From a virus, in the IMG/VR virus record IMGVR_UViG_3300050821_003659, positions 1 to 64,000 of that record: a DNA stretch of 64,000 bases; one strand, given 5' to 3'. Of the stretch, positions 27,363-48,169 are shown in pieces; positions within the stretch are counted from its first letter, which is position 1; each line of letters opens with the position of its first letter. The notes beneath the pieces are model-generated. The model was given only the letters and a program-made list of their open reading frames with translations, was not told the DNA's origin and made no database searches. A program made the position numbers and the translations under genes.

Positions 27363-28028
27363 ATGGCGATGACAGGCGACATCAAATCGTACATGCAGCA
27401 GTGGCTCCAAACGGCAACGAAGGGCGATGTCGTCGTAGACTACGCGTGGTTTCAAGACCGCATGGAGTTGCGGTGCAAGAAGTGCCACGCGGTGTTCCGC
27501 TGCACGCTGCCTGAGAGTCCGACTGAGATTGACTGGTCAATCCAGAAGTGGGTAAAGCAGCACGCACCCGGAGGAGAGCACGACACAAAAGAGTTGCACT
27601 GTCCTGTCGATCCGATTCCGCTCACTGCGGACTTTCACAAGCTGCCGAGTTTCAATCCGATTCCGTTACAGACGGGCGGGCAAACAGGGATCATCGACGC
27701 CAGCGAAGCGAAGGCCGCGATCCTGAAAGCCCAGATGGAGACGTACAAAGCTGAGCAGGAAAAGAAAGACATCGACGGCAAGGTTGAGTGGTTGAAGAAG
27801 ACGGCGGCACAGAAGGCTGAGGTTGCTGCGGCACAGACTGAGAAGGCGAAGGAACAAGCTCTTGCGAATCTGCTTCTGATGATGACACAGATGACGCAGA
27901 ACCCCCAGATCGTCAAGGCGATGAAGCCGCCAGAGGCCGTCCTTCCGAAAGAATGGGAGACAACAGTCACGCCGCAACCGAGAATACCGAAGGCCGCGAA
28001 GATCGTCACAGGACGGAGGTTCCGATGA
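27363..28028 (+). CDS. hypothetical Zn-finger/coiled-coil protein with C-terminal GRRFR
   Basis: CKKC...H; ends KIVTGRRFR. Confidence 0.75.
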   Translation: MAMTGDIKSYMQQWLQTATKGDVVVDYAWFQDRMELRCKKCHAVFRCTLPESPTEIDWSIQKWVKQHAPGGEHDTKELHCPVDPIPLTADFHKLPSFNPIPLQTGGQTGIIDASEAKAAILKAQMETYKAEQEKKDIDGKVEWLKKTAAQKAEVAAAQTEKAKEQALANLLLMMTQMTQNPQIVKAMKPPEAVLPKEWETTVTPQPRIPKAAKIVTGRRFR

Positions 28029-28453
28029 GACTGACCGCACGTGAAAAAGATTCTGACATGTTCGAGCGGCTGCTGAGAATCAACGACGAGAGTTTCAATC
28101 TTGATGAGCGGGCGTCCCGCGAGAAGTTCAAGGCCCTGTTCGATGCGAACGCGGTGTACGTTGACAGTGCACTGACACCAGCCGCCTTCGCGATAGTCAC
28201 TGATCGCGGCGGGCCTTATGTCATCGTGATCGCGGTGACGAGCAGTCTGCGGGGTCAGGGCGTCGGCTCTGCTCTCCTGCGGGAGATCGCAGAGTACAGC
28301 CGAGCATGTGGTGAGTACGGCGTGGCTCTGATGTGCAAGATTGACAACTGGCAAGCCCAGAGACTATACTTGAAAAATGAGTACCGAGTGGTTCGCGTCG
28401 TGCCGGGATATTACGGAGCGACAGACGGGCTTCTCATGAGGAGAAAAATATGA
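28025..28453 (+). CDS. GNAT acetyltransferase (RimI-like)
   Basis: IAV....RGQGVGSALL, DNWQAQRLY, GYY..TDGLLM. Confidence 0.85.
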   Translation: MRLTAREKDSDMFERLLRINDESFNLDERASREKFKALFDANAVYVDSALTPAAFAIVTDRGGPYVIVIAVTSSLRGQGVGSALLREIAEYSRACGEYGVALMCKIDNWQAQRLYLKNEYRVVRVVPGYYGATDGLLMRRKI

Positions 28454-29286
28454 CCAACATCGAATGCACCAAGTGCGGAGACGTAGTCGAAGTCACGGCG
28501 GACACCGTCGTGCTGCCTTTCGTTTGCATGTCCTGCGAAGACGCCATCGCGAAGTTCACGCAGGAGTTCGTTCCGCCCGCCCCCGTCACCGACGAACAGG
28601 CCGAGGTTGCCGCGTTCTACGAGAAGATGGCTCCCGAGTCTGAGACGACCGAGCCTGAGGAAGAGTTCGCGACCGTCGAGAACACGACGCTTCTCATCGC
28701 TGACCTTGAGGAGCAGTTGCGTCAGGAGAGAATCCTGTCAGACTCGCTGAAACTCCGCATCGAAAACGGAGAGGAAAAGAACACTCAACTGCTGATCGAG
28801 AAGAATCGTCAGGCTGACACGATCCGTACGCGTGGAGTACAGATCGAGAATCAGGCGAAGACCATCGCGTCGTATGAGAACGACATCGACGGGCTGCTCG
28901 ATAAGCAGGTACGCTCGAACGTCGCCCTCCAGTTCCTGAAGGCCGTTATCTACCAACTCGGCAAGGCCGGGATGGAACTTCGCAAGGAAGTTGATACGCT
29001 GAAGACCAAGGTCGTGAGTGAGCAGCGACGTACGGAGATCGAGAAGATGATCTCGCAGATGAATGCGTCCTCCGCAAATGGATACGCTTCTCAGGCTGCT
29101 GACCTGCGATACGAGATCGACCAGTTGAACGCCGAGATCGATACTCTGAAGCTGAACCTGAAGTGCACGAAAGAAGAACTAGCGACCGAACGTCGTAAGT
29201 CTCTTTGGACGCGGTTCGTAGAGCAGTGGCGTGCAGAGGCGAAGCGTGCTGCTGAAGAGAACAAGGACTACTACGGCGAGATATAA
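28450..29286 (+). CDS. Zn-ribbon plus long coiled-coil protein
   Basis: CTKC/CMSC followed by heptad repeats. Confidence 0.7.
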   Translation: MTNIECTKCGDVVEVTADTVVLPFVCMSCEDAIAKFTQEFVPPAPVTDEQAEVAAFYEKMAPESETTEPEEEFATVENTTLLIADLEEQLRQERILSDSLKLRIENGEEKNTQLLIEKNRQADTIRTRGVQIENQAKTIASYENDIDGLLDKQVRSNVALQFLKAVIYQLGKAGMELRKEVDTLKTKVVSEQRRTEIEKMISQMNASSANGYASQAADLRYEIDQLNAEIDTLKLNLKCTKEELATERRKSLWTRFVEQWRAEAKRAAEENKDYYGEI

Positions 29287-29517
29287 ATGACCGACCCCTT
29301 CAAGTTTCAACGTGCGTTGTTTCCCGAGATGGAGCCTCGCACGATTGTTGTCTCGAAGGGCGGCACGCCGCACAGGTGTTACGTCGTCTGGTGCGACAAG
29401 ATCACAGACGAGATCAGAAAGAGGGTTCGGGGCAAGAACAGTAAGCTGTTCGTCTCGATGCACACAAGTCATAGTGAACCAAACGACGAGGAGGTAGCAT
29501 GGGAATTAAAAATCTAA
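29287..29517 (+). CDS. hypothetical protein
   Basis: Abuts neighbouring ORFs. Confidence 0.55.
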   Translation: MTDPFKFQRALFPEMEPRTIVVSKGGTPHRCYVVWCDKITDEIRKRVRGKNSKLFVSMHTSHSEPNDEEVAWELKI

Positions 29518-30185
29518 TGCTCGTTCTTCTCCTCGTCGCCTCCTCTTTCGCACGCACCAAAATGTTTCCTGCAACACATGACTCTGTCCCTGCTGAGAAC
29601 AGGAGAGCCGAGATGCTGGGTCTGAAGAGGTACGAGACATTGGAGCAAGTCCAACAGGACGTAGCTTCTCTCAAACTCGTACCTCTCACAGTTCCGACAT
29701 CGAACAAGTTGCCGTTGAACCGGAGATACGCTCTGCCAGAGACGGTTGCCTTCGTGGAGAAGTTGGATCATGACTTCTATGAGATGACTGAGCATCGTCT
29801 GGTGGTTGACTCCGCAGTTCGTCCGCGTGACGTGCAGAAACGTCTGACACGCCGCAACCGGAACGCCGCCCCAGCGGATGGGGCAAGAGCATCAAGTCAT
29901 GAACGTGGCACGACAGTTGATCTCGCCCGCCCCCGTAAAAAGGGCGACCTGCGATGGCTTCTGCTGCGGCTGGCCTATTACAAGGCACGCGGCGATATTC
30001 TGGTCATCGAGGAGCGGGCCTGTATCCACGTCTTTGTCGGAGGGTCGCATGAGTTGCGTCTACAAGATTCGCAGGAAGTCGGATGGTCTGTACTCGAAGG
30101 GCAAGACCAGCCCCAGTTTCAACAAGGTGGGCAAGACGTGGAGTTCGTGGAGGAATCTCGTCCTGCACCTCTCCCTTGTCCGTGA
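29499..30185 (+). CDS. secreted M15/DUF5715-like peptidase (candidate endolysin)
   Basis: Signal peptide; SAVR, QKRL..RN.NAA, SSHERGTTVDL, E..CIHV. Confidence 0.7.
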   Translation: MGIKNLMLVLLLVASSFARTKMFPATHDSVPAENRRAEMLGLKRYETLEQVQQDVASLKLVPLTVPTSNKLPLNRRYALPETVAFVEKLDHDFYEMTEHRLVVDSAVRPRDVQKRLTRRNRNAAPADGARASSHERGTTVDLARPRKKGDLRWLLLRLAYYKARGDILVIEERACIHVFVGGSHELRLQDSQEVGWSVLEGQDQPQFQQGGQDVEFVEESRPAPLPCP

Positions 30186-30336
30186 CGGTCTGACTCACGT
30201 GAAGCCACAGGACAGGCTCCGTGAGGTGTACAACGGCTGCGAGATCGTGGAGTTCAAGGAAACGAGCAGCGTGCGGATCGACAGCTTCTTCGCAACATTT
30301 TTTGAAGAGAAGAAATCTCGCTTCGAGGGGGACTGA
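30049..30336 (+). CDS. phage hypothetical protein
   Basis: GGAGG RBS; YKIR..DGLYS.G...F.K.GKTW pattern. Confidence 0.65.
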   Translation: MSCVYKIRRKSDGLYSKGKTSPSFNKVGKTWSSWRNLVLHLSLVRDGLTHVKPQDRLREVYNGCEIVEFKETSSVRIDSFFATFFEEKKSRFEGD

Positions 30337-30563
30337 TGAGCTATCTCACATTCACGGAGTATCCAGCAAAGGGAGTGACGAAACGCTGGACGGTCGCATC
30401 GAAGACGGGCGTTGTTCTCGGAGAGGTGAAGTGGTACTCCGCGTGGCGTCGGTACATCTTCTTTCCGAACGCACTCACGTGTTACGACGCCGACTGTCTG
30501 CTCGACATCGTGACGTTTCTCAATTCGCAGATGCAGTGCTATCGCGATCAGAGAACCGTATGA
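30336..30563 (+). CDS. hypothetical protein
   Basis: LGEVKWYSAWRRYIF pattern; TGATG coupling. Confidence 0.65.
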   Translation: MSYLTFTEYPAKGVTKRWTVASKTGVVLGEVKWYSAWRRYIFFPNALTCYDADCLLDIVTFLNSQMQCYRDQRTV

Positions 30564-30647
30564 ACCACTGGGAGACACCCGAGGAGTTCCGAAGCTGGTG
30601 CCTGAGGATGGCGGCACTGCTCGACAAGAATCTGGAGGAGGCGAAAC

Positions 30648-30881
30648 GTGGAAAGCCAAGTGACGATCAACGCGGAGCAGTTGTCGAAGACCGCACAGCA
30701 TCTGCGGACGACACTGTTCGAGATGAGCAAGACAGTCGAGCGGTTCGATAACACGTCCGCCGCACTGATGCAGTACAGCGAAGGCTTCCTCGAACGTCTG
30801 GAAGCGATCATGAAACGAATGGAGAAGATCAATGAGCCAACCATCCACCCCGACGCCGTTCGCCCCGCTACTTTCCTGTGA
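30648..30881 (+). CDS. hypothetical helical protein
   Basis: GGAGGAGG RBS, GTG start. Confidence 0.6.
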   Translation: MESQVTINAEQLSKTAQHLRTTLFEMSKTVERFDNTSAALMQYSEGFLERLEAIMKRMEKINEPTIHPDAVRPATFL

Positions 30882-31209
30882 GATCACGACTGAGACGGTC
30901 GTCGCGACTGACGGGCACGAGGAGCATCCCGAGTCGATGCGTCCCCGAGTGTTCCTCACTGTCGTACAGAACGACAGCCGAGGGGACATCTTTTACGCGA
31001 GACATTACGAAGTTCTCGCCACAGGGTATGTGATCCCGTGGCAGACGCTGCCTGAGGGCAAGTTCGACTATCTGCACTTCTCGGTGCCCACGCTGAAAGC
31101 CTTCCGGCTGGCACACGCCAGCAATCCGAGTACGGCATTCTGGAACGGCACGCTGCGTCGGGTGTACGAATCTGTCGGCCCGAGCATTCCGACACTGGAG
31201 ATGAAATGA
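30832..31209 (+). CDS. hypothetical protein
   Basis: GGAG RBS. Confidence 0.55.
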   Translation: MSQPSTPTPFAPLLSCEITTETVVATDGHEEHPESMRPRVFLTVVQNDSRGDIFYARHYEVLATGYVIPWQTLPEGKFDYLHFSVPTLKAFRLAHASNPSTAFWNGTLRRVYESVGPSIPTLEMK

Positions 31210-31888
31210 TCCGACATCTGCACATGACGCCGGGGCCGAGCATCGCTGACCCCTGCAACACCGCCGTCTTTTACGAGGCACGGTACGCCGACCCGAAGCT
31301 GGGTCAGGAGCATAAAATCTGGGGCGGCTGGCGATGCCGTCTGATCCGCTGGCTCGTTCAGCGGTGGATGCCGACGCCGACCGTCTGGTGGGCTGATCTG
31401 AGGAAACGTGAGACTACCGTCACCACCGATCCCCGCTGAAGTGTGGGAGTTCCTGAGGATCGCAGAGGAGCAAAATGACCGAATCACAGGCGTACAGGAT
31501 GCTGGGCTGGCCCGCAGGGGGCGGGGAGCCACACAGCGAGAACAGGTTCGTCCTGCCACTGAGCGGGAGTGAGTCCGAGGACTGGTTCGTCACCCGATGT
31601 TACGACTGTCGATGGAGCGGCGTCTCGCTGGGACATATTCTTCCAGAGGGATGTCCGTCGTGCGGAAAGGCGTGGAGCCATGTCATCGGATAACCGTGTA
31701 CCAGATAAACCCGAGAACGATCCTCTCGTGATAATGGAGGAGTACGTCGCCGGGGAGTGGATCAGGGTGCCGCAGTACCCCCGGCTCCTGCACCCCGTGC
31801 ACGGGGCCTCCTGCCTGTCGGCTCTCAAGCGGGTGCACAAGTCGAGGAAGTTTCGACTCACACCTGTCCCAGAAGAGGACATACCGTT

Positions 31889-32299
31889 TTGAGCATCGAC
31901 AGCGTAGTCGCCAATCTCGCGGCCCAACTGTCGCACAGAGCCGCCGTGTCGATGAACGCCATCCTCGCTGGCATGGCTCCGAGCCAGAAGGAACTTTTCA
32001 CCCTCCCGGCTCCGGGCATCTGGGTTTACAAAGTAGAGTACCGAGTCTGGCTCCGATACGCGGACGGGCGAGAGTGCTGGTCGCCAGACTGGTACCACGC
32101 TGTGAACGGCAGAACCTGCCTCGCGTGGTACAAGCGACGGGCCGACGCGGAGAAGGCTCTCGTGCGTCACAGGGCACGGCATTCGTGCTGGGGAGTCAAA
32201 GAGTACCGCGTGCGTGCTGAGACGCACCCCGAGTATCCCTACCGCCGCGATCTCGATCCCCGAGCCAAGAACATCAACAGACTACGATCTATAAAGTAA
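31889..32299 (+). CDS. hypothetical protein, last gene of the operon
   Basis: Coupled ORF ending just before a terminator. Confidence 0.5.
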   Translation: MSIDSVVANLAAQLSHRAAVSMNAILAGMAPSQKELFTLPAPGIWVYKVEYRVWLRYADGRECWSPDWYHAVNGRTCLAWYKRRADAEKALVRHRARHSCWGVKEYRVRAETHPEYPYRRDLDPRAKNINRLRSIK

Positions 32300-32302
32300 A
32301 CT

Positions 32303-32337
32303 CGCCACGTACCCGTGATTCGGGGCGTGGCGTTTTT
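32303..32337 (+). terminator. intrinsic terminator
   Basis: CGCCACG...CGTGGCG followed by TTTTT. Confidence 0.75.
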
Positions 32338-32859
32338 GCGTTTCCCTTCCTGCCCCGGTGCCGCCCCGATCCCTCCCGCTGAGCACGGCGTTCCAGATTC
32401 GCGAATACGGAATGCAGCTTAGCCAGAGGGGGGTCGCAGGGGAGGTAACCTCCTATGAAAAACCATATATGCAGGGGGACTCAGTCAGGGAGTCCCTTAG
32501 GGGAGGTATGAAAAATAATATCCCCCCATGCGTCGAGTAGAGGGTCAGGAGTCCCTTGGCTAAGCCAAGCTCCGCTGGCCCGCGAGGGGTGCCGGGACTC
32601 CCCCGCCGCCGCCCTCGGCCCTAAGTACTGACCCCCTGTCAACGCTCTGATTCCAAAGAGTTTAGTACCCCTGACCCTGTACCCCTTTCGCTCTGTGTTC
32701 TCCCCGAGCTAACTCGTTTACAATGTGCAGTTACAGCGGTGGGACGCCACGCGAGTGCAGAATGTAGCGTAAGGCGTGTAGAATCACAGCGTTACAGCGT
32801 CCTGCACCAATATAGTGTTTTGGTGCACGGCATTTCAGCGTCCCGCGTCCCACTTCAGA

Positions 32860-33530
32860 GGGGCGAAGGGATTGCGTAGCCAAACCGACCAGTTGGTTGT
32901 GACGCTGGGACACAGCGAAGGGAAAGCGATGATATGGTTTATCATAGATCGCTACTGTTTCTCATAGGCGAATGGAATGCGTAAGGCTGTGTACTGTGTA
33001 AACGGTACAGCGAATGAACAGCGAATGCTGTAACCCTGCGTGTGGTGTATTGTGTACAGTGGCTGCGTGCTGTGCTCTGCGTGTGGCGTGCAGTGCTTCG
33101 CCTTTGGTTCTCCCTTGAGTGTATTCCTATCAGAGTCCTTAGCGTCTGCCCGATTTGCCCGAGTTCGCCGTGCGTTCGCCCTGCGTTGGTTTGTATCAGG
33201 TATTGGCCCGCCCAGTGACTATATACGATACAGATCGATCAGGCGAAGAGAATGCGAAGGTCTGCATGAAACGTTCCTGACGCTGGGGCGAACATAGAGC
33301 GAATGTGACGTATACATCACATTTGACTGATGAGTACACAGTTGCAATTCTGTTATCTAATCAGTAACGCATGCGTGTGTCATATCGTGCACACGCGGTG
33401 CCGTGCGTGGGTGAGCTATGACGCGTTACGCTTCGCCCTGCGTTCGCCCTGCACTGTCGTGCCTTGACAGTCTCTGGTCTGTCTGCCTGTCGGTGCAATC
33501 GATTGGCCCGATTCGTTCAATTTTCGCCTC
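32860..33530. repeat. dispersed GCGAA/TTCGC repeats in a non-coding region
   Basis: About 15 copies in both orientations; TTCGCCCTGCGTT at ~33175 and ~33432. Confidence 0.6.
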
Positions 33531-33622
33531 TGTTCACGGTGCGTGAACGTCACCAAATGTTGAACAGTTGGTGACAGTCAATAGCACGAAAGTGTGTACA
33601 TGGTACATGCACCTTCGTGCCA

Positions 33623-33650: not shown

Positions 33651-33673
33651 AGTCACAGTAAAGGGAGGCTGTG

Positions 33674-34258: not shown

Positions 34259-34434
34259 TGAAACGCATGTGGATCAATCAGCCGTCAACTCTTCAGCCGC
34301 ATCACAGCATGCACGGCGTGAACGTGCTAGCGTGCGAGGAACGTCCGGGCACAATGCGTGTTTACTTTCTGTCTGGCAACGTGGTCAGTCAGGAAATGTT
34401 TTCTAACTGTCTCTCACTTGGATGGAGGAGCTAA
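34258..34434 (+). CDS. hypothetical early protein
   Basis: TAATG coupling. Confidence 0.6.
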   Translation: MKRMWINQPSTLQPHHSMHGVNVLACEERPGTMRVYFLSGNVVSQEMFSNCLSLGWRS

Positions 34435-34769
34435 TGACAGGTATAACGCAGGGTCGCAGGTTTCGCTCAACGTCGCCGTTCACGTTCAAGCCGCAGGTCA
34501 CGCGTCAACGCACGCCAGCACAGCAACTGCAAGCCGACACGCGTCGTGTGAACCGTGCACTGCACGCGTTTGGCAACTATCACGACTTCATCCCGCTCGA
34601 TGCCGTCAACATCGAGTTGGCGGATGCTGGCTTTGATGAGTTGCCAGACATGCTGCTGTGCGGTGCACAAGGATCGATCAATGAGTCTGTCGGTCGCAAC
34701 CGCTGGCTCTCGCTCACGTGGTACAAAATGGAATCCGGTCGCTATGAGGTGGTGGCTTATGTCTCCTAA
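34434..34769 (+). CDS. hypothetical early protein with N-terminal ITQGRRFR
   Basis: GGAGGAG RBS; ends WYKMESGRYEVVAYVS. Confidence 0.7.
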   Translation: MTGITQGRRFRSTSPFTFKPQVTRQRTPAQQLQADTRRVNRALHAFGNYHDFIPLDAVNIELADAGFDELPDMLLCGAQGSINESVGRNRWLSLTWYKMESGRYEVVAYVS

Positions 34770-37739: not shown

Positions 37740-38129
37740 GTGCTGAGCAAACATCGCAGACAGATGTCACCCGCTGAGATACGATTCGCGGAGACTACGG
37801 TTCACGCAGTGGACACGTGGTGCTTCGACAACGATCACCTGCTACAACGCATGCAGCAGAAGCAGATCAGCAAGAAGGACGCGGTACTCGCTGCGAAGTA
37901 CGGCGAAGTCATCCGCGTTCAAGACGACGGTCGCGTGGTAATGCGGCTGATGCGACCAACGCAGCCGTTCGCGACTGACAAGGTCGGCACCGTCGTTTGC
38001 GTCTCGCTGCTCGACAAGACAATCGTCACCGCATGGCACAATGACCCGAAAGACAATCACATGTCTGCGGGCTTGGATGCGTACACTTGGCAGGTCAACG
38101 TCATCGAATATCTGAGGAGCATACAATGA
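37740..38129 (+). CDS. hypothetical protein (possible RelE/DUF4258-like RNase fold)
   Basis: HLLQRMQQKQI...IVTAW pattern; GGAG RBS. Confidence 0.45.
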   Translation: MLSKHRRQMSPAEIRFAETTVHAVDTWCFDNDHLLQRMQQKQISKKDAVLAAKYGEVIRVQDDGRVVMRLMRPTQPFATDKVGTVVCVSLLDKTIVTAWHNDPKDNHMSAGLDAYTWQVNVIEYLRSIQ

Positions 38130-39679
38130 AAACTTTCATCGAGTTGTTCACCGACGCCCGTGCGGTATCGACGCCGTCAGTCGCTATCAAGACCTTCGAC
38201 GCAACGTCTAGCATCCTCGCTGTGCAGAACAGCATGTCCCCTGAGGAAGCTGAGTTGACGCCGTTCATCACGTGGGACGCGATACACGGTCTGCGTGGTC
38301 TGACTGACGCGGGCACCGAAGCACTCGCTACGATGTGCAACGATGCCAGCGTGCCTGAGGTTGGTATCTCATGCGATCTGCCCACCGCACTCGGCATCCT
38401 CGAACGTGCGAAGCAGGATGTCATCGCCTTCATCCACAATCCACAGTTGGTGTGGAACGAAGCGAAGTCGGTCGTGCAAGGGTACGCGAACCTTCGCAAC
38501 GACTACAAGGCACGCGGCAACATGGTCGTCACACTCTTCGGAGTTGGCGACACGATGCCCATCGAACTCCAGCAAGACACGCTGGTGCTCGAACACCCAC
38601 TGCCCACGCGTGACGAACTCGCGAAGATCGTGCGAGAGACGTACGCGTACGCATACAACAGCGACCCCAAGAAGTACAAGGCGTGCAAGACAGTCGATGA
38701 GACGGTCGTTGCACTCGCGGTCGATGCACTGATCGGTCTGCCAGCGTTCCCTGCTGAGCAGAGCACAGCGATGTGCCTGAACAAAGAGTCTGGCGTGCTC
38801 GACATCGTCACACTCTGGGATCGCAAGAAGACAATCGTCGGACAACGCAAGGGCTTGACCTACCGCACAGGCGGGCTGAAGCTGCACGACCTGTACGGCG
38901 TCGAATCGTTCAAGACCTACGGCAAGCGGCTGATGTCTGGCAGCAAGCCTCCGACAGTCATCCTGAGAATGGACGAGATACAACGTCAACTCTCAGGCAA
39001 CGATACAGACTCAAGCGGCGTCAAGGGTGACCTGCTTGGTGAGTGGCTGACGTGGATCAACGACCACGACATCTACTGCACTCTGCTCCTCGGCGTTCCG
39101 GGCAGCAGCAAGTCACACAGCATCGACTGCATCGCTGGTGAGTACGGCAAGCCTGTGATCGACTACTCGATCTCACGCATGCAAGACTCGCTGGTCGGCA
39201 ACAGCAACAAGAACATGACGGTCGCCAACAGCACCGTGGACTCGATCAGCGACAAGAACGTATGGCTTGTAGCTACGGCGAACAAGCTGGACGGTCTGCC
39301 GCCTGAGTTGCTCTCTCGCTTCGCGGACATCTTCTTCTTCGATGCACCGGACGCGGATGAGTTGGCTGGCATCATGAACCTGAAGCTGGAGGCATACAAA
39401 CTCGACACGACTCAGCCGCATCCTGACATGACGGGCTGGACTGGTCGTGACGTGAAGAACTGTGCTGTGAAAGCACAGCGTATGAACTCCACCGTTGTCG
39501 AGTGCGGCGAGTACATCATCCCACTGATGACATCGCAGAAGGAAGCGATGGACAAGTTGAGGCACGATGCTGCTGACCGCTTCCTCAGTGCTTCGAAGCC
39601 CGGAGTATACAAGTACACCGAGCCGACAGTGAAGCACACCGCGACCGTGAAGATCACGGAAGGTCGCAAGATGCGGTAG
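38126..39679 (+). CDS. Ycf46-like AAA+ ATPase with rearranged Walker motifs
   Basis: TWD..GL N-domain, MDEI, GVPGSSKS, VATAN, LPPELLSRF, WTGRDV; ends KITEGRKMR. Confidence 0.85.
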   Translation: MKTFIELFTDARAVSTPSVAIKTFDATSSILAVQNSMSPEEAELTPFITWDAIHGLRGLTDAGTEALATMCNDASVPEVGISCDLPTALGILERAKQDVIAFIHNPQLVWNEAKSVVQGYANLRNDYKARGNMVVTLFGVGDTMPIELQQDTLVLEHPLPTRDELAKIVRETYAYAYNSDPKKYKACKTVDETVVALAVDALIGLPAFPAEQSTAMCLNKESGVLDIVTLWDRKKTIVGQRKGLTYRTGGLKLHDLYGVESFKTYGKRLMSGSKPPTVILRMDEIQRQLSGNDTDSSGVKGDLLGEWLTWINDHDIYCTLLLGVPGSSKSHSIDCIAGEYGKPVIDYSISRMQDSLVGNSNKNMTVANSTVDSISDKNVWLVATANKLDGLPPELLSRFADIFFFDAPDADELAGIMNLKLEAYKLDTTQPHPDMTGWTGRDVKNCAVKAQRMNSTVVECGEYIIPLMTSQKEAMDKLRHDAADRFLSASKPGVYKYTEPTVKHTATVKITEGRKMR

Positions 39680-39820: not shown

Positions 39821-40750
39821 ATGGCGTCACCAGCACCTGCTCTCTCAACTCTGACCACCGACGTAGCGAAACTCGACCTGAGCAAGACTGAGGACTGCGT
39901 CTTCATCACGACCCACTTCACGATGGGCATCGGTCGCATGAAGCAGATCACCAACCTGAACGTCATCACCGACGCAGACCAGAGCCAGTTGCGTCACCAG
40001 AAGAAACTGATCGACTCTCCTGAACTCGAAGAGATCAGAAGCCAAGACGGTTTCCTCAAGCGTTACCTCGACAGCAAGATGTGCCGCTACTCTGAGTCCA
40101 CTGGGTTTCTGCCACACGTGTTCCTGAAAGAAGTTGACCGTGCGATCATCGCGTACCAGACCATCCGGCGTCCGAAGCTGGTGCAGAAGTTCATGGAGAA
40201 GTACCGAGCACTCGAAGCGATGGACTTCGCACCGCTGAAGGCTGCACTCGGTTCGCACTTCAACCGCAGCGACTATCCATCGAGCGAGATCGTAGAGCGT
40301 GGCTTCGACTTCACGTTCTACTACCGTCCGGTTGGCAAGGTAAACCTCGAAGGCATCAGCGATGTCATCATCGCACGCGAAGCCGAAAAGGAACAGGCCA
40401 TCCGCCTCGCAGCCGTCACAGAGTGGCGTGACGCACTGCGGTTGGCTGGTGCAGAGATGGTCGATGCACTCTTCGACATGCTCAAACCTGAGGCTGGCAA
40501 GACGAAGAAGCTGTACGGTTGCCACGTCGAAAAGTTGCAAGAGTTCCTCGCGACGTTGCCTGACCGTGACCTAGCGAACGACACAGACTTCACCAAGAAC
40601 ATGAACGTGGTGAAGGCTGCACTCGAAGGCGTCACCATCGACAGACTGCGAGAGAGCAAGAGCCTCCAGCAGTACGTTGCTGACAAGGTCGCCACGGTTC
40701 GCGAGGACATCAAGAACCTGACAATCGTCTCCGGTCGTCGCTTCCGGTAG
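39821..40750 (+). CDS. DUF3150-like helical protein with C-terminal GRRFR
   Basis: KKLID..EL..I, LG..FN..DYPS pattern next to the AAA+ gene; ends TIVSGRRFR. Confidence 0.6.
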   Translation: MASPAPALSTLTTDVAKLDLSKTEDCVFITTHFTMGIGRMKQITNLNVITDADQSQLRHQKKLIDSPELEEIRSQDGFLKRYLDSKMCRYSESTGFLPHVFLKEVDRAIIAYQTIRRPKLVQKFMEKYRALEAMDFAPLKAALGSHFNRSDYPSSEIVERGFDFTFYYRPVGKVNLEGISDVIIAREAEKEQAIRLAAVTEWRDALRLAGAEMVDALFDMLKPEAGKTKKLYGCHVEKLQEFLATLPDRDLANDTDFTKNMNVVKAALEGVTIDRLRESKSLQQYVADKVATVREDIKNLTIVSGRRFR

Positions 40751-40805: not shown

Positions 40806-41222
40806 ATGGACAAACCATTCGCACCAACGCCGCAGAAGATCGTGACCATCACCATCGACGAGAACGGCGACCAAGTCTTTCTGAAGACCGACTCCGCTGA
40901 TGTGTTTCTCGAACAGGGCGAAGTCATCACACGTCGTGCATCGCACGTTGAACCCGCCGACTTCTGGCGGCGTCTGGCGTTCAGTGTACTTCGTAAACTC
41001 ACACCCGACACGAGCCGCATCGCAGCGTGGACACGCACATGGAACTGCCTCTGGCGTGTGAACACGAAGCCTGTCGGTGGCCCGATACTCACGCACTTCC
41101 ATGTGAAGCCCGAGACGCAGTCGCTGATGTGGGACGCCATCGCGTGGTTCCCCAACAGGCAGGATGCAATCGATGCTGAGGTTCAGTTTCTGAATCGCTG
41201 GTTCGCTGAGAGGACAATCTAA
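40806..41222 (+). CDS. RRASHVEP-family protein of AAA/DUF1257 clusters
   Basis: RRASHVEP, PVGGP.L, F..R..A..AE..L motifs. Confidence 0.65.
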   Translation: MDKPFAPTPQKIVTITIDENGDQVFLKTDSADVFLEQGEVITRRASHVEPADFWRRLAFSVLRKLTPDTSRIAAWTRTWNCLWRVNTKPVGGPILTHFHVKPETQSLMWDAIAWFPNRQDAIDAEVQFLNRWFAERTI

Positions 41223-41629
41223 TGAGTGCATACCACACGCAGAAGACGCAGTACAAAGATCGCGACTGTCTAGTGAAGGCCCTGAACGATCAAGGCTACA
41301 CGACAGTCGAAGTGCATGAAGTCGCGACGAACCTGTACGGTTATCACGGTGACATGCGTTCGCAGAAGGCCAACGTCATCGTCCGCCGTCAGTACGTTGG
41401 ATGTGCAGCGAACGACCTTGGCTTCGTGAAGGCTGAAGACGGCACGTACAGTGCAATCGTCTCTCAGTTCGACAGCGGCAAGCATGACGCGGGCTGGTTC
41501 AAGGGGCTGAAGAAGTCCTACACCGAAGCACGCGACATGAAGACCGCAGCGGCACAGGGTTTCAAGTTCCTCGGCAAGAAGATCGTCGGGGGCAAAGTTC
41601 AACTCCAGTTCGCAGACACGAGGAGCTAA
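41222..41629 (+). CDS. DUF1257 (Ycf35-like) protein
   Basis: MS.Y....T...D...LV.AL...GY, NDLGF....DGTY. Confidence 0.75.
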   Translation: MSAYHTQKTQYKDRDCLVKALNDQGYTTVEVHEVATNLYGYHGDMRSQKANVIVRRQYVGCAANDLGFVKAEDGTYSAIVSQFDSGKHDAGWFKGLKKSYTEARDMKTAAAQGFKFLGKKIVGGKVQLQFADTRS

Positions 41630-41630: not shown

Positions 41631-41822
41631 ATGGCACTCAAGATAATCACCATCACCATCGATGAAGAGGGCGACCAGACGGTCGATCTCACTGGCTACC
41701 ACGGCAAAGGCTGCGACGCCGTCGCTGATGTCTTCGGTCGAGCACTCGGAGAGACGACCAAGGTCACTCACAAGCCTGAGTTTAACAAGCCAGCGATCAA
41801 CAAGAACCTGCTAAGACACTAG
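41631..41822 (+). CDS. DUF2997-like small protein
   Basis: ITITID..G...V...G..GK.C...LG......KPEF. Confidence 0.75.
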   Translation: MALKIITITIDEEGDQTVDLTGYHGKGCDAVADVFGRALGETTKVTHKPEFNKPAINKNLLRH

Positions 41823-41867
41823 CAGAACGGGGGCAGCGATGCCCCCAGATTGCCTTGGAGGGCAAAC

Positions 41868-42436: not shown

Positions 42437-42450
42437 AAAAGGGAGAACAC

Positions 42451-43008
42451 ATGATAAACAAACTCGCAGTAGAGTTTCTGAACGACGCCATCAAGCATCT
42501 GCAATCGCAGTCGTACTCTGACTCCGGTCGCGGTCTGTCCTTCCAGCAGTGGTTCAAGACGCTGGAGAACTCCATCGAAAAACTTCGCGAGGCCAAGAGC
42601 CGCGTGCCTCACGTGAAGACGCCCATCGAGAAGGCGACCACGGTGTTCGATGTCGTGGACGCGACGAACGATGTCGCGGAGTCTGTCGGCACGCTGGTCG
42701 TGATCGACATGCAGCGTCTCGAACGCGAGGTGCTGATCGGCAGCATCGCAGATGCGGACGTGCAGAAACTTCTGCCCTTCGCCAACGTGATCGGTGACGG
42801 CGAGAACTTCCGCCACATCATAAACAAGTCCGCGTACGTGGTCGAAACTAACAGCCACGTGATCGCAGAGAACGAAACACTCTGCAAGCGTGCGGGCAAG
42901 ACGTGGGAGACGTACTACGGCAGCGATGCCGTCAGTGTCGCGACCTGCCCCGGTTGCCTTGCGAAAGGCAAAGCGGTCATCGTCAACCATCTACTCAAGA
43001 CACTCTGA
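42451..43008 (+). CDS. hypothetical protein with H..C..CPGC motif
   Basis: GGGAG RBS, 185 aa. Confidence 0.7.
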   Translation: MINKLAVEFLNDAIKHLQSQSYSDSGRGLSFQQWFKTLENSIEKLREAKSRVPHVKTPIEKATTVFDVVDATNDVAESVGTLVVIDMQRLEREVLIGSIADADVQKLLPFANVIGDGENFRHIINKSAYVVETNSHVIAENETLCKRAGKTWETYYGSDAVSVATCPGCLAKGKAVIVNHLLKTL

Positions 43009-43183
43009 GGAGGTGATCCTATCTCGGCACAGTGCTGCTGTGCCGTCTGCTCTACTCTGTTCACGCTGACAGCATCGGGCTACCCAACGGGGGCCGACAG
43101 TGTGAGCATGGGGCTACTAAACCGCTATCGCAGGACGCTGCGGTGGAGTAGAGCAGACGAGACAGCAGCAACGTCAAAAGTTC

Positions 43184-43273
43184 GGAAGGTTGGGTGAGTG
43201 GATGAAACCATCGCTCTGCTAAGGCGACGTACCCGCAAGGGTGCCGTAGGTTCGAATCCTACACCTTCCGCCA
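43184..43273 (+). tRNA. tRNA-Ser(GCT)
   Basis: GGAAGGT/ACCTTCC acceptor, CTGCTAA loop, long variable arm, TTCGAAT loop, G73, CCA. Confidence 0.92.
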
Positions 43274-43840
43274 AGCGTGTCGGACTATCCGTTGGGACGT
43301 TTCTAGAGCCACCCCCAACGGTGGAGAGCCGATATCCAGCAGTCTGCACTGGGGAGTATAAGAGCGGCGTCATGAACCGTTCGCCCTATCACTGAGACTT
43401 CTGGAGTATCTGCTGGTTCCACGGAGGACACATGGAAACAACTTTATTGTTGCTGGCAATCGCGTTACTTCTAGCGTTCAGGGGGGCATAATGGCAACCG
43501 AAGAGAGCAGGGCAATACTTCCGCCAACAATCGCTGGGCTTGACCTTGCCATCACGGTCACTCTCGGTCTGCGACGGTGCGGTCACAAGACGCGGCTGGT
43601 CGAGCGTGCCATCTGTGGCTTCCCTGTCATCGAAGTTCTGGCAACTCCACCGCCGCGACCGACGCGTGCGGAACGGGGGTGCAACCTTGGACTGTGACAC
43701 GATCCCCGAGTACGTGCTGAGGCTGTGGAAGCTGATGGAACCCCCACGCAGCCTCAGCTTGAACGCGGCGAAGGCGGTTGTCAACGCCGCGATGTACGGT
43801 GTAGGATGTATCGAAGGCAAAGTGAGAGAGGAGCAACAAC

Positions 43841-44077
43841 GTGTCGAAGAAAACGCTCGACGTGATCTTCGTTGAATATCTGAAAGAGCAGGTTGAGGAT
43901 GCGAAGGCTGAGTACGTGGGCATCCAAGAGTGCGAGGGTGTTGGATACGATCTCGTCCTCTTCAACTCCCCCAAGACGGGCAGCACGCTAGCCGTCAAAT
44001 CAAATGTCGATGACGTGCGTGACGCAGTCGCCAAGCGTCTCGCCGCTCACGACAGGGACTGGAAGAAACATGGATAA
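43841..44077 (+). CDS. hypothetical protein
   Basis: GAGGAG RBS, GTG start. Confidence 0.6.
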   Translation: MSKKTLDVIFVEYLKEQVEDAKAEYVGIQECEGVGYDLVLFNSPKTGSTLAVKSNVDDVRDAVAKRLAAHDRDWKKHG

Positions 44078-44385
44078 CCAGTGGGGAGTGGGCGTGCCTG
44101 ACTCAGCGATCATCATGCTTGCCAGACTGATGCTCACACGCATCAAGCTGAAGGGCATGAAGGTCACGACGAGACAGGACGCCATCGCGATCATCAAGGG
44201 GCTACGACCCGCAGTGAGCAAGGACACTCCGCTCAGTGCCGTCGTGAAGCCTGTGACTGACAAGCCTGTCGTGGAAGGCAGGTGCTCGTCCTGCGGCAAG
44301 CCGTTGCTGAGGGGTTCCCTCTGTCGTACGGTCTGGACGATGCACGACGGGGAGCACATCAGATGTCCGGGCGGGAAAATATAAC

Positions 44386-44414
44386 TTGTCAATATAGTTC
44401 CGTTATGGCACTAT
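44386..44414 (+). promoter_or_regulatory. sigma70-like promoter
   Basis: TTGTCA-17-CACTAT; same -10 hexamer as the 18751 and 54335 promoters. Confidence 0.6.
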
Positions 44415-44437
44415 GTTGGCATCTCACGGAGGTGAGC

Positions 44438-44701
44438 ATGCAAGCAGGAAAGACAAAGGCAGAGCGTAAGGCGTCCCGAGCAGGACGTGTCGCAGATCGT
44501 CCGACGAAACGCGGCGAACGTCGTGCAGCGAACACGCTGCGGCGTGTCGAGCAGAAGACCACGGCAACACTGAAGGAAGATCGCAAGCGTTCGTACCTCG
44601 CGACCTACACCGAGGGCGTGCGTGCGGCAAGGGAACTGAAGAAAACGTTGCGGGCTAACGCAACCACACCTGCTGAGGCAGCGACCAACGAGACGCGGTA
44701 A
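44438..44701 (+). CDS. small highly basic protein
   Basis: GGAGGTG RBS; Arg/Lys-rich. Confidence 0.65.
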   Translation: MQAGKTKAERKASRAGRVADRPTKRGERRAANTLRRVEQKTTATLKEDRKRSYLATYTEGVRAARELKKTLRANATTPAEAATNETR

Positions 44702-44800
44702 GCCGTCTCAACAACGGTGGACGGGGGAGAGGCTGGTGACTCGATGATCCCGTCCGCTGATTAAGAAAAACTATACCACTTTTTCTCAACGGAGGATGCG

Positions 44801-45265
44801 ATGGACGGGCAACTCGACAGTGCAGAGCAGCAACTGAAACTGATGCAGGTGATCGAGAAGTTCGCGGAGACGCGGACGACCGAGAAGTCGGGCCGCATGC
44901 ACGGACTTGAGACTGTCGAGGGTGCGTACTGCATGTGCGACTCCACGAGCGATGCGTTCATCCGCTTCGCACACGCTGCGGGCGTCACGCTCGAACTCTC
45001 CCGCTATGACTTCGATCTCGACACGACAATATGTTTGCCTGAGGGCGGCATCCAGTCTCAGCCGTCACCACGCAACCCCGACCCGACACTTTACCAGCGT
45101 GGGAAACATCCGACCGCAGAGTTCCACCGTGCGGGCTGGCACGCAATCGTAGAGACGCCCGAGTTTTTTCTTGACTTCACGGCACGCCAGTATCATCATG
45201 AGGCTTGCTATCCGCACATCATCAGCAAGAAACTAGCAGCGGCAGCAGCCGCAGGAGGCGACTGA
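44801..45265 (+). CDS. papain/transglutaminase-like Cys-His-Asp protein
   Basis: GAYCMCDS...WHAIV...FLDFTARQY; ends KKLAAAAAGGD. Confidence 0.6.
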   Translation: MDGQLDSAEQQLKLMQVIEKFAETRTTEKSGRMHGLETVEGAYCMCDSTSDAFIRFAHAAGVTLELSRYDFDLDTTICLPEGGIQSQPSPRNPDPTLYQRGKHPTAEFHRAGWHAIVETPEFFLDFTARQYHHEACYPHIISKKLAAAAAAGGD

Positions 45266-45677
45266 TGTGTGACGAGACACCGTCTCTGTTCGACATCCTG
45301 ACTCGATATGAGAACGCGATGGTGCAGGTGCACTACGAGCAGGATGACAGCGAAGCAGCACAGACAGAACTGAGCGAGGCTCGACAGGCTCTGCTCACAA
45401 TCTTACGAGAAGCACTAGGGAGGAACTGACATGTCGTTCGGAGCAAAAGAAGCACGCGAGACACGCATCAAGGCAGACCGCAAGCCGCGAGTCAATCTCT
45501 GCGGCGACTGCGGCGACGAGATCAGCGAGACAGAACTGCTCTGCGAATCGTGCAGACGAACGGGCGAGAATCGGTGGGAGCCAATCCATGATCTGTCCTC
45601 GCTGCAAACTCGCTAGGCCCCAGCGTTACGGCGTCATGCTTCGCTGTGGCTGCTGTGGGCGTGTATACGGTACACAA

Positions 45678-45753
45678 CTCCTGAGTCCCGAAGCCGACGA
45701 GGGGCGTGGCTGCAACCCACGTGAAACTGGTGCGAGTCCAGTTCAGGAGTCCA
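45678..45753 (+). tRNA. tRNA-Cys(GCA), atypical T loop
   Basis: CTCCTGA/TCAGGAG acceptor, CGTGG-CTGCAAC-CCACG anticodon arm, T loop TGCGAGT, U73, CCA. Confidence 0.8.
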
Positions 45754-45984
45754 ACATCTGGCTGGTAGGCACGTTCTTAGGGTCACAATAACGATATTCT
45801 AACCCCGCCCTGATGGGTTTAGATCGTGGGTGACCATCGACAAGGGGGTTGCTGTGTAACGGCACAGGAACCCCCGGAACAGGGAGATCAGCATGAGGGC
45901 GTACGCGGTCGAAAGTCTGGTCGTCGTGATCCTGATGGAAGTCATCTGGATCGTGGCGAAACTCGAAGCACTGGCGAGGTGAGT

Positions 45985-46623
45985 GTGGGATATAAGCTGA
46001 CGAACAAAAATCTGGCGGTCACGCGGCTGATGCCTCGCGGCCCAAAGGCAGACAAGCGGCTGAAGTACATGCACGTCTCGCCGCAGGGCACCGTGTGTCT
46101 GACGCCGTCGTATCTCGTGCGAGTGTCGCTGCCGAATGTACCGCAGCCACGTCTGCCTGTCCTGCACATGCAGAAGCAGATCGATGACGGCGGCTGGATC
46201 AATCACGGCACCCAACACGGAGAACCGTTTGACATGGGAGAAGGTCGGCCCGCGACGAACGGCCCCGAGCACATCGTTCCTCGAATCGATGACGCGATCC
46301 CCGTGCCCGAAGATCAGACGGCGACGTTTACCTGCAACGCAGAGACGCTGCTGAAGATGCTGAAGATCGTGAACGAGGTGAGCGAAGACAGCGAGAAGCC
46401 GATACGTCTGCGGCTGTACGGCGGCGAGAACGCGACCGAGCTACGCATCGACTCATACCGTCAACCGGGAAAGCAGGAGTTCCTCGGCGTGCTCAAGTGC
46501 ATGGAGTACTACGGGAGCCTGATCCCCGGCGACAAGCCGAGCGACATGCCCGTGAAAGAAGAACCACCGAAGCAGATGGTCGAGACGCTGAAGGTGAGCA
46601 CAGGTCGGAGGTTCAGATCGTGA
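45985..46623 (+). CDS. possible sliding-clamp-like fold protein with C-terminal GRRFRS
   Basis: FTCNAETLLKML...IRLRLY...LRID...FLGVL resembles a clamp domain; ends KVSTGRRFRS. Confidence 0.45.
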   Translation: MGYKLTNKNLAVTRLMPRGPKADKRLKYMHVSPQGTVCLTPSYLVRVSLPNVPQPRLPVLHMQKQIDDGGWINHGTQHGEPFDMGEGRPATNGPEHIVPRIDDAIPVPEDQTATFTCNAETLLKMLKIVNEVSEDSEKPIRLRLYGGENATELRIDSYRQPGKQEFLGVLKCMEYYGSLIPGDKPSDMPVKEEPPKQMVETLKVSTGRRFRS

Positions 46624-47678
46624 AGGGTGAAGAGGACGCGACACTGATCTCGAAACCGACAGGGAATCTACTGGGCTACTACCACCGCCTGACAGGATTC
46701 GCGAAGAAGGGCGAGTCCTGTCTGGATAGCGGCAAGTACATGTGGTCGTACACGAAGTGGTCGCAGCCTGTGAACATCGCGAACGTGATCGACAACATCG
46801 AGAAGTGGCACACGAACGTTCAGGAGTACGCGGTCGTGCGGTGCGTGAACTGCGGAGACTATCACGGACAGAGTGACTGGTCTGGCGTGCGGTGCCCGAA
46901 GTGTGAGAAGCTGACGTTGAAGGCATCGCTGAAAGACGCGGGCGGATGGCCCCTGCCTGTCTGTGTGTTGGCGGGCAATCGAGTTCAGTTCACGCAGTAC
47001 TGCAAAGATAAGGGTGAGAACCCGTACACGACAGACGCGTTCATCGACGGTTCGCAGGGCATGATCCACGGGCACCACTTCAGCGGCATCGTGATCGTCG
47101 GAACGTTTGAAGAAAAAGTTGACGCCAATGAAATTCTGATGTACGCTAAGGCGAACCTCGAACCCGGAGGGCAGATCACCGGAGGAAACGTCGTGAAGCC
47201 GAAGCCGCTGCTGGTGGTGAAACCCGTGAACATCTGGAAAGGTGCAGACGGCGTGCCGACAGCGTCGAAGCCGTTTCTGTTGCCGAAAAAAGAAGAACCG
47301 AAGATGAAGAACGGCGAGGTGCGAAAACTTCCCAAGGCGAATAGCCCGATGTGGGTGACGCAGTGGGCGGCACAGGGCACAGCGAAGACGCCGTACATCG
47401 TGAGCAAGAAAGATACGCCGAGTGGAGCAACGACAAGCGAGGGCTGGGCGTGCTCTTGTCCTAGCTTCACACAAAACTCTCCCCGAGCGGACTGCAAGCA
47501 CATCTGCTGGGTGAGGAAGTTCGAGAACATCCCGATGAGTGCTGCACCTGTCGCGATGTTGCCAAAGGAACAGCAGGAGGCGTTCAAGAAGTTTTTGCTG
47601 GAGCAAGCGAAGGCGGGCAATCCCGCGATCAAGGTCGAGAAGAAACCGTTCATCACGCAGGGCAGGAGGTTCCGATGA
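46620..47678 (+). CDS. SWIM zinc-finger protein with C-terminal GRRFR
   Basis: CVNC/CPKC ribbon; WACSCP...DCKHI; ends FITQGRRFR. Confidence 0.75.
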   Translation: MKGEEDATLISKPTGNLLGYYHRLTGFAKKGESCLDSGKYMWSYTKWSQPVNIANVIDNIEKWHTNVQEYAVVRCVNCGDYHGQSDWSGVRCPKCEKLTLKASLKDAGGWPLPVCVLAGNRVQFTQYCKDKGENPYTTDAFIDGSQGMIHGHHFSGIVIVGTFEEKVDANEILMYAKANLEPGGQITGGNVVKPKPLLVVKPVNIWKGADGVPTASKPFLLPKKEEPKMKNGEVRKLPKANSPMWVTQWAAQGTAKTPYIVSKKDTPSGATTSEGWACSCPSFTQNSPRADCKHICWVRKFENIPMSAAPVAMLPKEQQEAFKKFLLEQAKAGNPAIKVEKKPFITQGRRFR

Positions 47679-48169
47679 TATCACAGCACAGGACAGACCG
47701 AGCGACCGCGTACAACCACATGCCACCACACGAGCGTGCGGCGTCGTTCATCAAATCGAGCATCTACTTCTGTGAGCAGAATATCGGCGGTCTGCAATCG
47801 GAAATAAAAATGTGGGGCGAACCGGAGATCGTCGCACTCCTCGGTGACGAGACGTGCTACATGAAACGTTGTCAGGCCGAGTCTGCTCTCAAAGAGCACG
47901 AAGCAGAGAAGCAGAGTTGGGAACATCTCTACGACAAACTCGGAGCGTGCCAGACGTGCAACGGGCAAGGATGGCTCTGGCAGTGCGTCTCACAAGACGA
48001 ATCGATCAAGGTGAAGTGCGACTCGTGCGGAGGGTTAGGCAAGACGTTGGCCGCGACTGCGGCGGTCAAGACTGTGGAAGCACAGAAGGCAGTTGCCGCA
48101 GCCGAAGCCGCGAAGAAGCCGACTCTGCTGGACAACATGAAGACGGCGTTGGGAAGGAAGTTCCGATGA
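47675..48169 (+). CDS. DnaJ-type CxxCxGxG zinc-finger protein with C-terminal GRKFR
   Basis: CQTCNGQG, CDSCGGLG; ends TALGRKFR. Confidence 0.7.
   Translation: MISQHRTDRATAYNHMPPHERAASFIKSSIYFCEQNIGGLQSEIKMWGEPEIVALLGDETCYMKRCQAESALKEHEAEKQSWEHLYDKLGACQTCNGQGWLWQCVSQDESIKVKCDSCGGLGKTLAATAAVKTVEAQKAVAAAEAAKKPTLLDNMKTALGRKFR

Follow-up and report, generated by a model that had tools for sequence, protein, structure and literature searches.

A C-terminal peptide shared by a Cdc48/p97-like ATPase and unrelated proteins of a soil phage: a candidate docking tag

The GQYL peptide of mycobacterial Mpa and Bpa/PafE and the HbYX peptide of archaeal PAN and Cdc48, the Rpt subunits and Blm10 are docking tails of proteasome activators (PMC4254994, PMC8142254). 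Here, we analyze a tail of comparable kind, G-R-[RK]-(F/M/I)-R, that ends six proteins encoded in a 64,000-nucleotide stretch (the window) of IMGVR_UViG_3300050821_003659, an uncultured soil phage with a full viral contig of 75,961 nucleotides. As with HbYX and GQYL, a short, flexible C-terminal peptide is common to an AAA+ ring ATPase and to unrelated non-ATPase proteins, and the phage ATPase is of the Cdc48/p97 type, like Cdc48 among the HbYX carriers. All HbYX and GQYL carriers insert their tails into the same type of pocket on a shared partner, and we propose the same for the phage tail. The phage tail differs in that a logo of 106 distinct tails contains no Tyr, the motif ends in Arg, and a free C-terminus is dispensable. 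No 20S, HslV or other peptidase family was recognized by Pfam or PHROGs among about 45 window proteins, a scan that left many small open reading frames (ORFs) and the last 12 kb of the contig outside.

Short terminal motifs that address several proteins to one machine are known from other systems as well. The MIT domain of Vps4 reads the MIM tails of ESCRT-III, the N-domain of ClpX reads the XB tail of SspB, and p97 cofactors carry the Arg-rich VBM and VIM motifs. In each case, several proteins with one short terminal motif are brought to one AAA+ machine, and the VBM and the XB tail resemble the phage tail in being Arg-rich with a hydrophobic residue; the difference is that the ATPases of those systems lack the motif, whereas the phage ATPase carries it. 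The EEVD tails of Hsp70 and Hsp90 are read by TPR co-chaperones, the acidic C-terminal tails of T7 gp2.5 and gp4 by the T7 polymerase, and the T4 gp45-binding tails are likewise terminal peptides read by one domain. These tails, too, are shared by unrelated proteins of one pathway, but they are acidic or hydrophobic, whereas the phage tail is basic with a single hydrophobic residue. No TPR protein was found on the phage, and, unlike the case of the T4 gp45 tails, the candidate clamp of this phage carries the tail and does not read it.

With respect to gene content, the closest described assemblage is the Ycf46/Ycf35(DUF1257)/DUF2997 set of cyanobacteria, plastids and mobile elements. The phage has neighboring genes for the AAA+ ATPase, a DUF1257 protein and a DUF2997-like protein, the ATPase being a member of the wider Ycf46-type family, but it adds a DUF3150-like partner, a protein encoded from position 40806 (hereafter, the 40806 protein) and four more proteins that bear the tail. 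In the papers searched, no function, complex or tail motif is described for this set, and a literature search on Synechocystis slr0374 with its neighbors slr0373 and slr0376 yielded transcript-level studies only. A search with the motif strings recovered no relevant paper containing a tail of the G-R-[RK]-[FM]-R type, in agreement with an earlier reading of this DNA from the sequence alone (the sequence-only reading), which knew of no described system with this motif. To that reading, the present analysis adds a codon and overlap test, a census of the carriers, family-wide tail statistics, a concerted switch of tail spelling in a related phage and a possible clamp client.

A non-random C-terminal peptide on a conserved set of proteins

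In a six-frame scan of the 75,961-nucleotide contig, GR[RK][FM]R occurs seven times, always on the plus strand and always in real genes. Six copies are C-terminal, one of them followed by Ser, and the seventh lies 5-12 residues from an N-terminus. The carriers, with their terminal strings, and the N-terminal copy are as follows.

27363..28028, plus strand: carrier 1, a helical protein rich in Lys, Glu and Ala that has a Zn-ribbon and a Pro/Lys linker; tail GRRFR at 28011-28025 (KIVTGRRFR)
38126..39679, plus strand: carrier 2, the tandem (D1-D2) Cdc48/p97-like AAA+ ATPase; tail GRKMR at 39662-39676 (KITEGRKMR)
39821..40750, plus strand: carrier 3, the helical "DUF3150-like" operon partner; tail GRRFR at 40733-40747 (TIVSGRRFR)
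45985..46623, plus strand: carrier 4, a 212-residue protein, possibly sliding-clamp-like; tail GRRFR+S at 46603-46620 (KVSTGRRFRS)
46620..47678, plus strand: carrier 5, a Zn-ribbon and SWIM-like (CxC-x12-CxH) protein; tail GRRFR at 47661-47675 (FITQGRRFR)
47675..48169, plus strand: carrier 6, a 164-residue protein with a hint of a DnaJ-type CxxCxGxG zinc finger; tail GRKFR at 48152-48166 (TALGRKFR)
34443-34466, plus strand: the N-terminal ITQGRRFR copy, in a variable N-terminal extension of the ORF 34434..34769

All six terminal strings, as well as the two codon strings quoted for the ends at 39679 and 40750, are exactly as the sequence-only reading gave them. Using the pattern G[RK][RK][FMILV]R followed by at most 4 residues, we found the tail on 6 of the 668 six-frame ORFs of at least 60 amino acids, whereas 200 residue shuffles averaged 0.14 and never exceeded 2; the Poisson probability of six tails is ~1e-8. 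The core pattern occurs eight times anywhere in these ORFs, and six of the occurrences are terminal. The six tails are strongly non-random, and the observation of the sequence-only reading is confirmed.

In the logo, the five positions are occupied by G (96 of the 106 tails), R (106), K or R (87 and 19), F, I, M or V (66, 19, 18 and 3) and R (106), and a short hydrophobic [LV]-x-[IV]-x-x stretch precedes the motif. In 25 of the 106 tails, the motif is followed by 1-4 additional residues (S, G, T, TE, GEGE, VEN), so that a free carboxylate cannot be essential. In AlphaFold2 (AF2) models, the tails (residues 505-517 of the ATPase and 304-309 of the DUF3150-like protein) are disordered. These observations support the view that the tail behaves like a short linear motif at a disordered protein terminus. 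The same logo bears on the idea that the basic tail does no more than help DNA-handling proteins to bind DNA, RNA or anionic lipid. The net charge of +3 and the presence of zinc-ribbon, SWIM-like and possibly clamp-like carriers in a replication-type region speak for such a role, but Gly at -4 (96/106) and the hydrophobic residue at -1 are constrained far beyond what a charge patch needs, the homologous tail of sister clades has acidic ends (...F-E-D-E), and the tail is present on a protein-unfolding ATPase too. We regard this explanation as very improbable.

Relatives were gathered via the ATPase and comprise 120 database homologs, 13 viral loci, 80 metagenome loci and 4 genome-assembly loci; four related phage genomes, including that of phage G003, were taken whole. 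A scan of viral contigs with a single protein query had found no relative, but alignment-based scans did. Approximately 115 of the 120 ATPase homologs (51-94% identity) end in RK-hydrophobic-R followed by 0-4 residues, and R514, K515 and R517 do not change among 33 diverse members, whereas the preceding linker varies freely. Across about 60 related loci, the tail is retained by all orthologs of five carrier families. All DUF3150-like orthologs found in the close clade keep it. In the family of carrier 1, which has no Pfam or PHROG family match, 9 of 9 ORFs found in related loci by BLAST or a hidden Markov model (HMM), with 7 distinct tails, end in GR[RK][FI]R, one of them extended by EAN. For carrier 4, 31 of 32 database homologs (41-100% identity) keep GR[RK]FR plus 0-4 residues, the remaining one ending in GRRFK, and the tail is present on 9/9 locus ORFs. 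The 13 orthologous ORFs of carrier 5 all keep the tail, position -4 being occupied by G in nine, T in one and N in one of 11 distinct tails. Carrier 6 has no homolog in related loci; in G003 and loci L035 and L045, the slot after the SWIM-like gene holds small tail-bearing genes unrelated to it. The 45985-46623 gene, the SWIM-like gene and the small variable gene form a second tail-bearing block of three consecutive, translationally coupled genes, in an order that is conserved in G003, L035, L041, L045, L050 and L062. The bodies of the carriers are indeed unrelated, as the sequence-only reading stated, but the carriers are a conserved set of five stable families and a variable sixth, not a loose collection.

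Two of the labels used in that reading, "DUF3150-like" and "SWIM", did not gain Pfam support for the window proteins. DUF3150 (PF11348) fails to match carrier 3 and matches one of its 20 relatives (E 0.0021); the AF2 model of this protein (mean predicted local distance difference test score, pLDDT, 78) gave only generic helical bundles in fold searches (Z ≤ 9.3). For carrier 5, the arrangement CSC-x12-CKH is visible by eye in the translation, and no Pfam family matches at E ≤ 0.01. Carrier 4 may be a sliding clamp, an identity for which sequence searches give no support: its structural neighbors in the Atlas are two-domain proteins of the DnaN/PCNA type (TM 0.51-0.61, with a weak model of pLDDT 0.55), its family profile found no clamp in the PDB, and PF02768 touches one of 24 family members at an E of only 0.09. 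No clamp loader was recognized on the phage.

The N-terminal copy was reported correctly by the sequence-only reading, and its eight residues are the same as those of the SWIM-like tail, all DNA differences between the two being synonymous. It is, however, missing from 8 of 8 orthologs of the 34434-34769 protein, and appears to be a phage-specific addition of uncertain function.

Four of the window stops overlap the next start (ATGA at 28028, 47678 and 48169; GTGA at 46623), and those at 39679 and 40750 are TAG codons with no overlapping gene, as had been described; the gene that begins within the stop of carrier 1, by way of its ATG, encodes a GNAT. In the four overlaps (28011-28028, 46603-46623, 47661-47678 and 48152-48169), the tail codons GGN AGG AGG TTC CGA TGA supply an AGGAGG Shine-Dalgarno sequence along with the overlapping ATG or GTG. 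Three carrier families conserve this double use of the codons, the stop lying within an RTGA start in 11/11 SWIM-like genes, 5/6 of the 27363 family and 6/8 of the 45985 family, with AGGAGG-like strings in the tail codons. The peptide might then be a by-product of translational coupling, GGN-AGG-AGG-TTC-CGA-TGA being kept as a Shine-Dalgarno sequence with an overlapping ATG, and four of the six window copies fit that description. As the cause of the tail, this is refuted, with hardly any probability left to it. The overlap is found in 0/33 distinct DUF3150-like tails and 8/49 distinct ATPase tails, leaving 33/33 and 41/49 that exist without it; the peptide is invariant while its codons vary freely, with four of four Gly codons and six of six Arg codons in use across relatives; and the homologs of the 45985 protein keep the tail (31 of 32) though the number of residues after the motif varies. 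Because the tail is kept without overlap and with all Gly and Arg codons, it is selected at the protein level, as the sequence-only reading had argued. That reading had pointed to loss of the tail in homologs lacking a downstream overlap as the contrary outcome; in such homologs, the tail persists. The use of the tail codons for ribosome binding and initiation is secondary.

Several familiar signals were compared with the tail and rejected. Degrons for ClpX of the ssrA type (non-polar last residues, LAA, with a free alpha-carboxylate) or the MuA type (basic residues before a hydrophobic terminal one, RRKKAI) do not correspond to a tail that ends in Arg, tolerates extra residues and has an N-terminal copy. 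Sliding-clamp-binding motifs (QL[SD]LF, the PIP box, T4 gp45-binding tails) require Gln and paired hydrophobic or aromatic residues that are missing from the logo. A twin-arginine translocation (Tat) signal (S/T-R-R-x-F-L-K plus an h-region) is incompatible with the C-terminal location of six of the seven copies, and the sequence downstream of the 34434 copy is polar and lacks an h-region.

The tail across the ATPase family

The ATPase is recognized by PF00004 (32.7 bits against a cut-off of 21.2). Its AF2 model (pLDDT 87) has a tandem D1-D2 AAA fold, for which the best Foldseek matches are Cdc48, p97, Rix7, NVL and AFG2, at E values of about 1e-11 to 1e-12; the model consists of D1-D2 only, without a MIT, p97-N or ClpX zinc-finger domain. 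When 1.84 billion representatives were searched with a profile of the ATPase, 6652 hits at E ≤ 0.001 were obtained, and tail statistics were compiled for the 147 full-length, very diverse proteins among the best 150 of these. R-x-hydrophobic is present in the last 14 residues of 129 of the 147, compared with a mean of 33.5 for internal windows, and the stricter [GASP]R[RK]-hydrophobic in 40 of the 147, compared with 0.5. These counts indicate that the tail is a family-wide property of the ATPase, tied to the AAA+/DUF1257/DUF2997 operon, and that G-R-[RK]-(F/M/I)-R is this lineage's spelling of a conserved C-terminal R-x-hydrophobic tail of the Cdc48/p97-like ATPase. The Ycf46-like AAA+, listed by the sequence-only reading among receptor candidates, thus appears as more than a candidate, namely, as the family-wide owner of the tail.

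In the window, the ATPase heads an operon in which it is followed by the tail-bearing DUF3150-like protein and by three proteins without the tail.

40806..41222, plus strand: the untagged 40806 protein, a clade-specific module gene with an invariant RRASHVEP block
41222..41629, plus strand: an untagged DUF1257 (Ycf35-like) protein (PF06868, 36.7 bits against a cut-off of 22.2), candidate receptor or adaptor
41631..41822, plus strand: an untagged DUF2997-like protein of 63 residues with an invariant G-x-G-C, candidate receptor or adaptor

The DUF2997-like protein matches PF11211 with E 6e-5 and 23.2 bits, slightly below the cut-off of 24.1, and an HMM of its relatives found it in 52 sources beside DUF1257, including the distant clade discussed below. 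DUF1257 is conserved in close and distant clades. Together, DUF1257 and DUF2997 always accompany the ATPase, and so does the DUF3150-like protein in all loci examined here; the 40806 protein is present in at least 35 related loci.

A distant phage clade, with ATPases 31-37% identical to the phage one, lacks the GRK-type tail. Its ATPase and its DUF3150-like protein both end in R-x-I-x-[FL]-[ED][ED] instead, as in the pairs RTISVED with RCITFDEE and GRSLSLGED with RAITFEDE; SRSIRIED and HRSIRLED occur in separate loci, and a third small protein sometimes carries KRKITLKD. The presence of this clade's own tail on both proteins indicates that lineages re-spell the peptide and that copies of it are placed on operon partners. 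Tails of the form R-x-I-x-[FL/IV]-[ED][ED] (e.g., RSIRLED, ARRIVLED) were seen in the distant-clade loci L006-L010, L086, L097, L098 and L115.

A smaller change of spelling is found in phage G003, where six of six carriers have I or V at the hydrophobic position (GRKIR in five, GRKVR in one), compared with F, or M in the ATPase, in the sister-phage orthologs; in the 27363, 45985 and SWIM-like families, the G003 member is the only one of the I type. This joint change on all carriers fits a single reader of the tail. In another clade, C-terminal extensions occur on the ATPase as well as on its DUF3150-like partner (GRKFRT with GRKFRE, GRKFRTE with GRKFRVEN). The claim of one motif read by one receptor, made by the sequence-only reading, fits the concerted spelling in G003 and is supported indirectly in this way.

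Two explanations that place the reader elsewhere have to be weighed against this distribution. Phage early proteins commonly target host hubs, and the tail could be a hook by which all carriers dock on one host protein, such as a polymerase, a chaperone or a membrane site; that no phage-encoded receptor could be singled out in sequence searches is compatible with this scenario. The tail, however, is a feature of the ATPase family in phages and bacteria of great diversity, each lineage with a spelling of its own, and it is accompanied by one and the same operon throughout, which suggests that the reader moves along with this operon. A host-protein hook is therefore, in our estimate, distinctly improbable.

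The other explanation is that the tail is a degron that marks proteins for unfolding or degradation, for example, for a timed loss of early proteins. The unfoldase would be the p97-like ATPase, the Clp ATPase that the phage encodes (58809-59843) or a protease of the host. Bacterial degrons usually take the form of terminal unstructured peptides; the ATPase has a Cdc48/p97-type unfoldase fold; and the phage encodes a Clp-type ATPase, which is conserved in all complete relatives, along with a GroES-like protein and a transfer-messenger RNA (tmRNA). Against these considerations, a tail borne family-wide by the ATPase itself would be odd for a substrate mark, 1-4 extra residues are tolerated, in a tail unlike the ssrA-type or MuA-type signals, the set of carriers is stable and conserved and counts a permanent operon partner among its members, no peptidase partner is found among the approximately 45 proteins scanned, and nothing ties the Clp ATPase to the tail. 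On balance, a degron seems unlikely.

Docking on the module and the search for a socket

The reading we prefer, with a probability of roughly 60%, is that the tail is a docking, or address, tag of the AAA+/DUF1257/DUF2997 module, such that the ATPase and its clients share one kind of site. It is favored because a ring ATPase and its otherwise unrelated partners bear one peptide on their flexible ends, with concerted re-spelling. The extra residues and the N-terminal copy show that a free carboxylate is dispensable, as expected of a linear docking motif. We infer from the comparative data that the ATPase and the clients would plug their tails into one kind of binding site, most plausibly the untagged DUF1257/DUF2997 proteins, acting as a multivalent adaptor that would hold the tails of ATPase and clients side by side. 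Such a socket is preferred because the ATPase is itself tagged, at the D2 end of its double ring; the second choice would be the ATPase ring itself. With either site, clients would be kept at the ATPase for remodeling or unfolding, the clients in this phage being, putatively, the possible sliding clamp, the zinc-finger proteins and the DUF3150-like protein.

Carried further, the docking proposal would describe a multi-client remodeling machine that has not been described before, in which a DUF1257/DUF2997 adaptor binds the tail of the ATPase and those of its clients and delivers the clients to the unfoldase, while lineages re-spell label and socket together and enroll new clients by the addition of about ten residues. 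We offer this wider scheme tentatively, as possible and yet doubtful.

Several results weigh against docking on this module. The co-variation within the close clade amounts to 1-3 independent events and is not significant on the tree: a phylogenetically controlled test of pairs of ATPase and DUF3150-like tails had 1-3 independent pairs and no power. ATPase and client spellings may differ within one genome (GRKMR or GRKIR beside GRKFR), so that the reader must tolerate F, I and M. No clear patch of charge-swapped columns between the basic-tail and acidic-tail clades emerged in the ATPase, DUF1257 or DUF2997, the charge-reversal scan being roughly symmetric (in D2, 9 columns are more acidic and 7 more basic). 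Fused receptor-client forms were not found either, the search for fused (Rosetta-stone) versions of DUF1257 having returned a single transposase-containing protein. Finally, contact with nucleic acid is also conceivable for so strongly basic a tail, carried as it is by zinc-finger and clamp-like proteins.

When the 40806 protein, DUF1257, DUF2997 and the ATPase were searched for columns that change along with the tail from F to I, a few candidates emerged, among them ATPase position 236, which is Ser in six of six I-type operons; the comparison involves only about three independent lineages. Profile searches of the PDB with the ATPase, DUF1257, DUF2997 and the 45985 family produced nothing meaningful, and a score for sharing of the ATPase tail was too noisy in distant loci, except for L086 and L098. 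A likeness of the tails to the N-terminal strand of DUF2997 (K-I-I-T-I-T-I-D-E-E) was considered and rejected as evidence.

The AAA+/DUF1257/DUF2997 set is widespread, in cyanobacteria and plastids (ycf46/ycf35), in many bacteria and in many large phages. The shared tail offers a handle on the module, as it lists the probable clients of the machine in each genome. In this phage, the list points to replication-associated proteins and, if the identity of the 45985-46623 protein is right, the phage sliding clamp would be one of the tagged clients. A ten-residue peptide is a potential bait for the receptor, and the predicted lineage-specific pairs of tag and socket could be swapped by experiment. 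If docking is borne out, the module would be a prokaryotic and viral counterpart of tail-docking by proteasome activators and p97 cofactors, and the tail could serve as a portable recruitment tag.

The operon and the surrounding genome

The AAA core of the ATPase looks permuted, judging by the order of its motifs. In the active AAA domain (38957-39115, ATPase residues ~278-330), the Walker B block (ILRMDEIQ, with D283 and E284 invariant) precedes the Walker A block (GVPGSSKS, with G326, K329 and S330 invariant), and the stretch from Walker A to the sensor-1 strand (VWLVATAN) lacks an hhhhDE strand. PADLOC gave the ATPase only weak IetA-like AAA matches, and the other eight proteins none.

The first 15 residues of the 40806 protein match the N-terminal hairpin of DUF2997 (hhalign probability 89%, E 2e-6, 15 columns). 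The only part that the two proteins share (40806-40880 and 41631-41690) is this K-I-[VI]-T-I-T-I-D-E-x-G-D hairpin, a second short common element in the operon, which is N-terminal and located on untagged proteins. The same operon was also found on contigs binned into metagenome-assembled genomes of Bacteroidetes (L114, PSRA01000093.1) and Myxococcales (L115, CAZMRP010000003.1); the 8-kb L114 contig resembles a phage fragment and therefore says little about a host.

A DNA-level search of the phage collection with this stretch gave no match. The completeness of the contig is ~80% by CheckV. At both contig ends, the minus strand carries structural genes, and a long plus-strand block contains the early and replication genes, among which we recognized the following.

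Plus strand: Prim-Pol/DUF3987, family A DNA polymerase, a single-stranded DNA-binding (SSB)-like protein, SNF2 helicase
Plus strand, further genes: RNA ligase, RlaP, PD-(D/E)XK nuclease
Plus strand, GroES and Clp types: GroES-like protein, Clp-type ATPase
Plus-strand block, RNA genes: three tRNAs and a tmRNA

The GroES-like protein (57495-57986) has an N-terminal extension of 55 residues, and the Clp-type ATPase is a single ring, with AAA_2 and ClpB D2-small domains and without an N-domain; both proteins are conserved in 4/4 of the related phage genomes fetched whole. The tmRNA (25085-25505), detected by ARAGORN, is permuted, that is, in two pieces, encodes the tag peptide AETKPLAMAAAAGR, and adjoins genes for tRNA-Thr, tRNA-Ser and tRNA-Asp that are dispersed across the early region. 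A metallophosphatase ORF (26246-27172) continues through the tRNA-Thr gene (27029-27104) on the same strand, with its last ~48 codons in the overlap.

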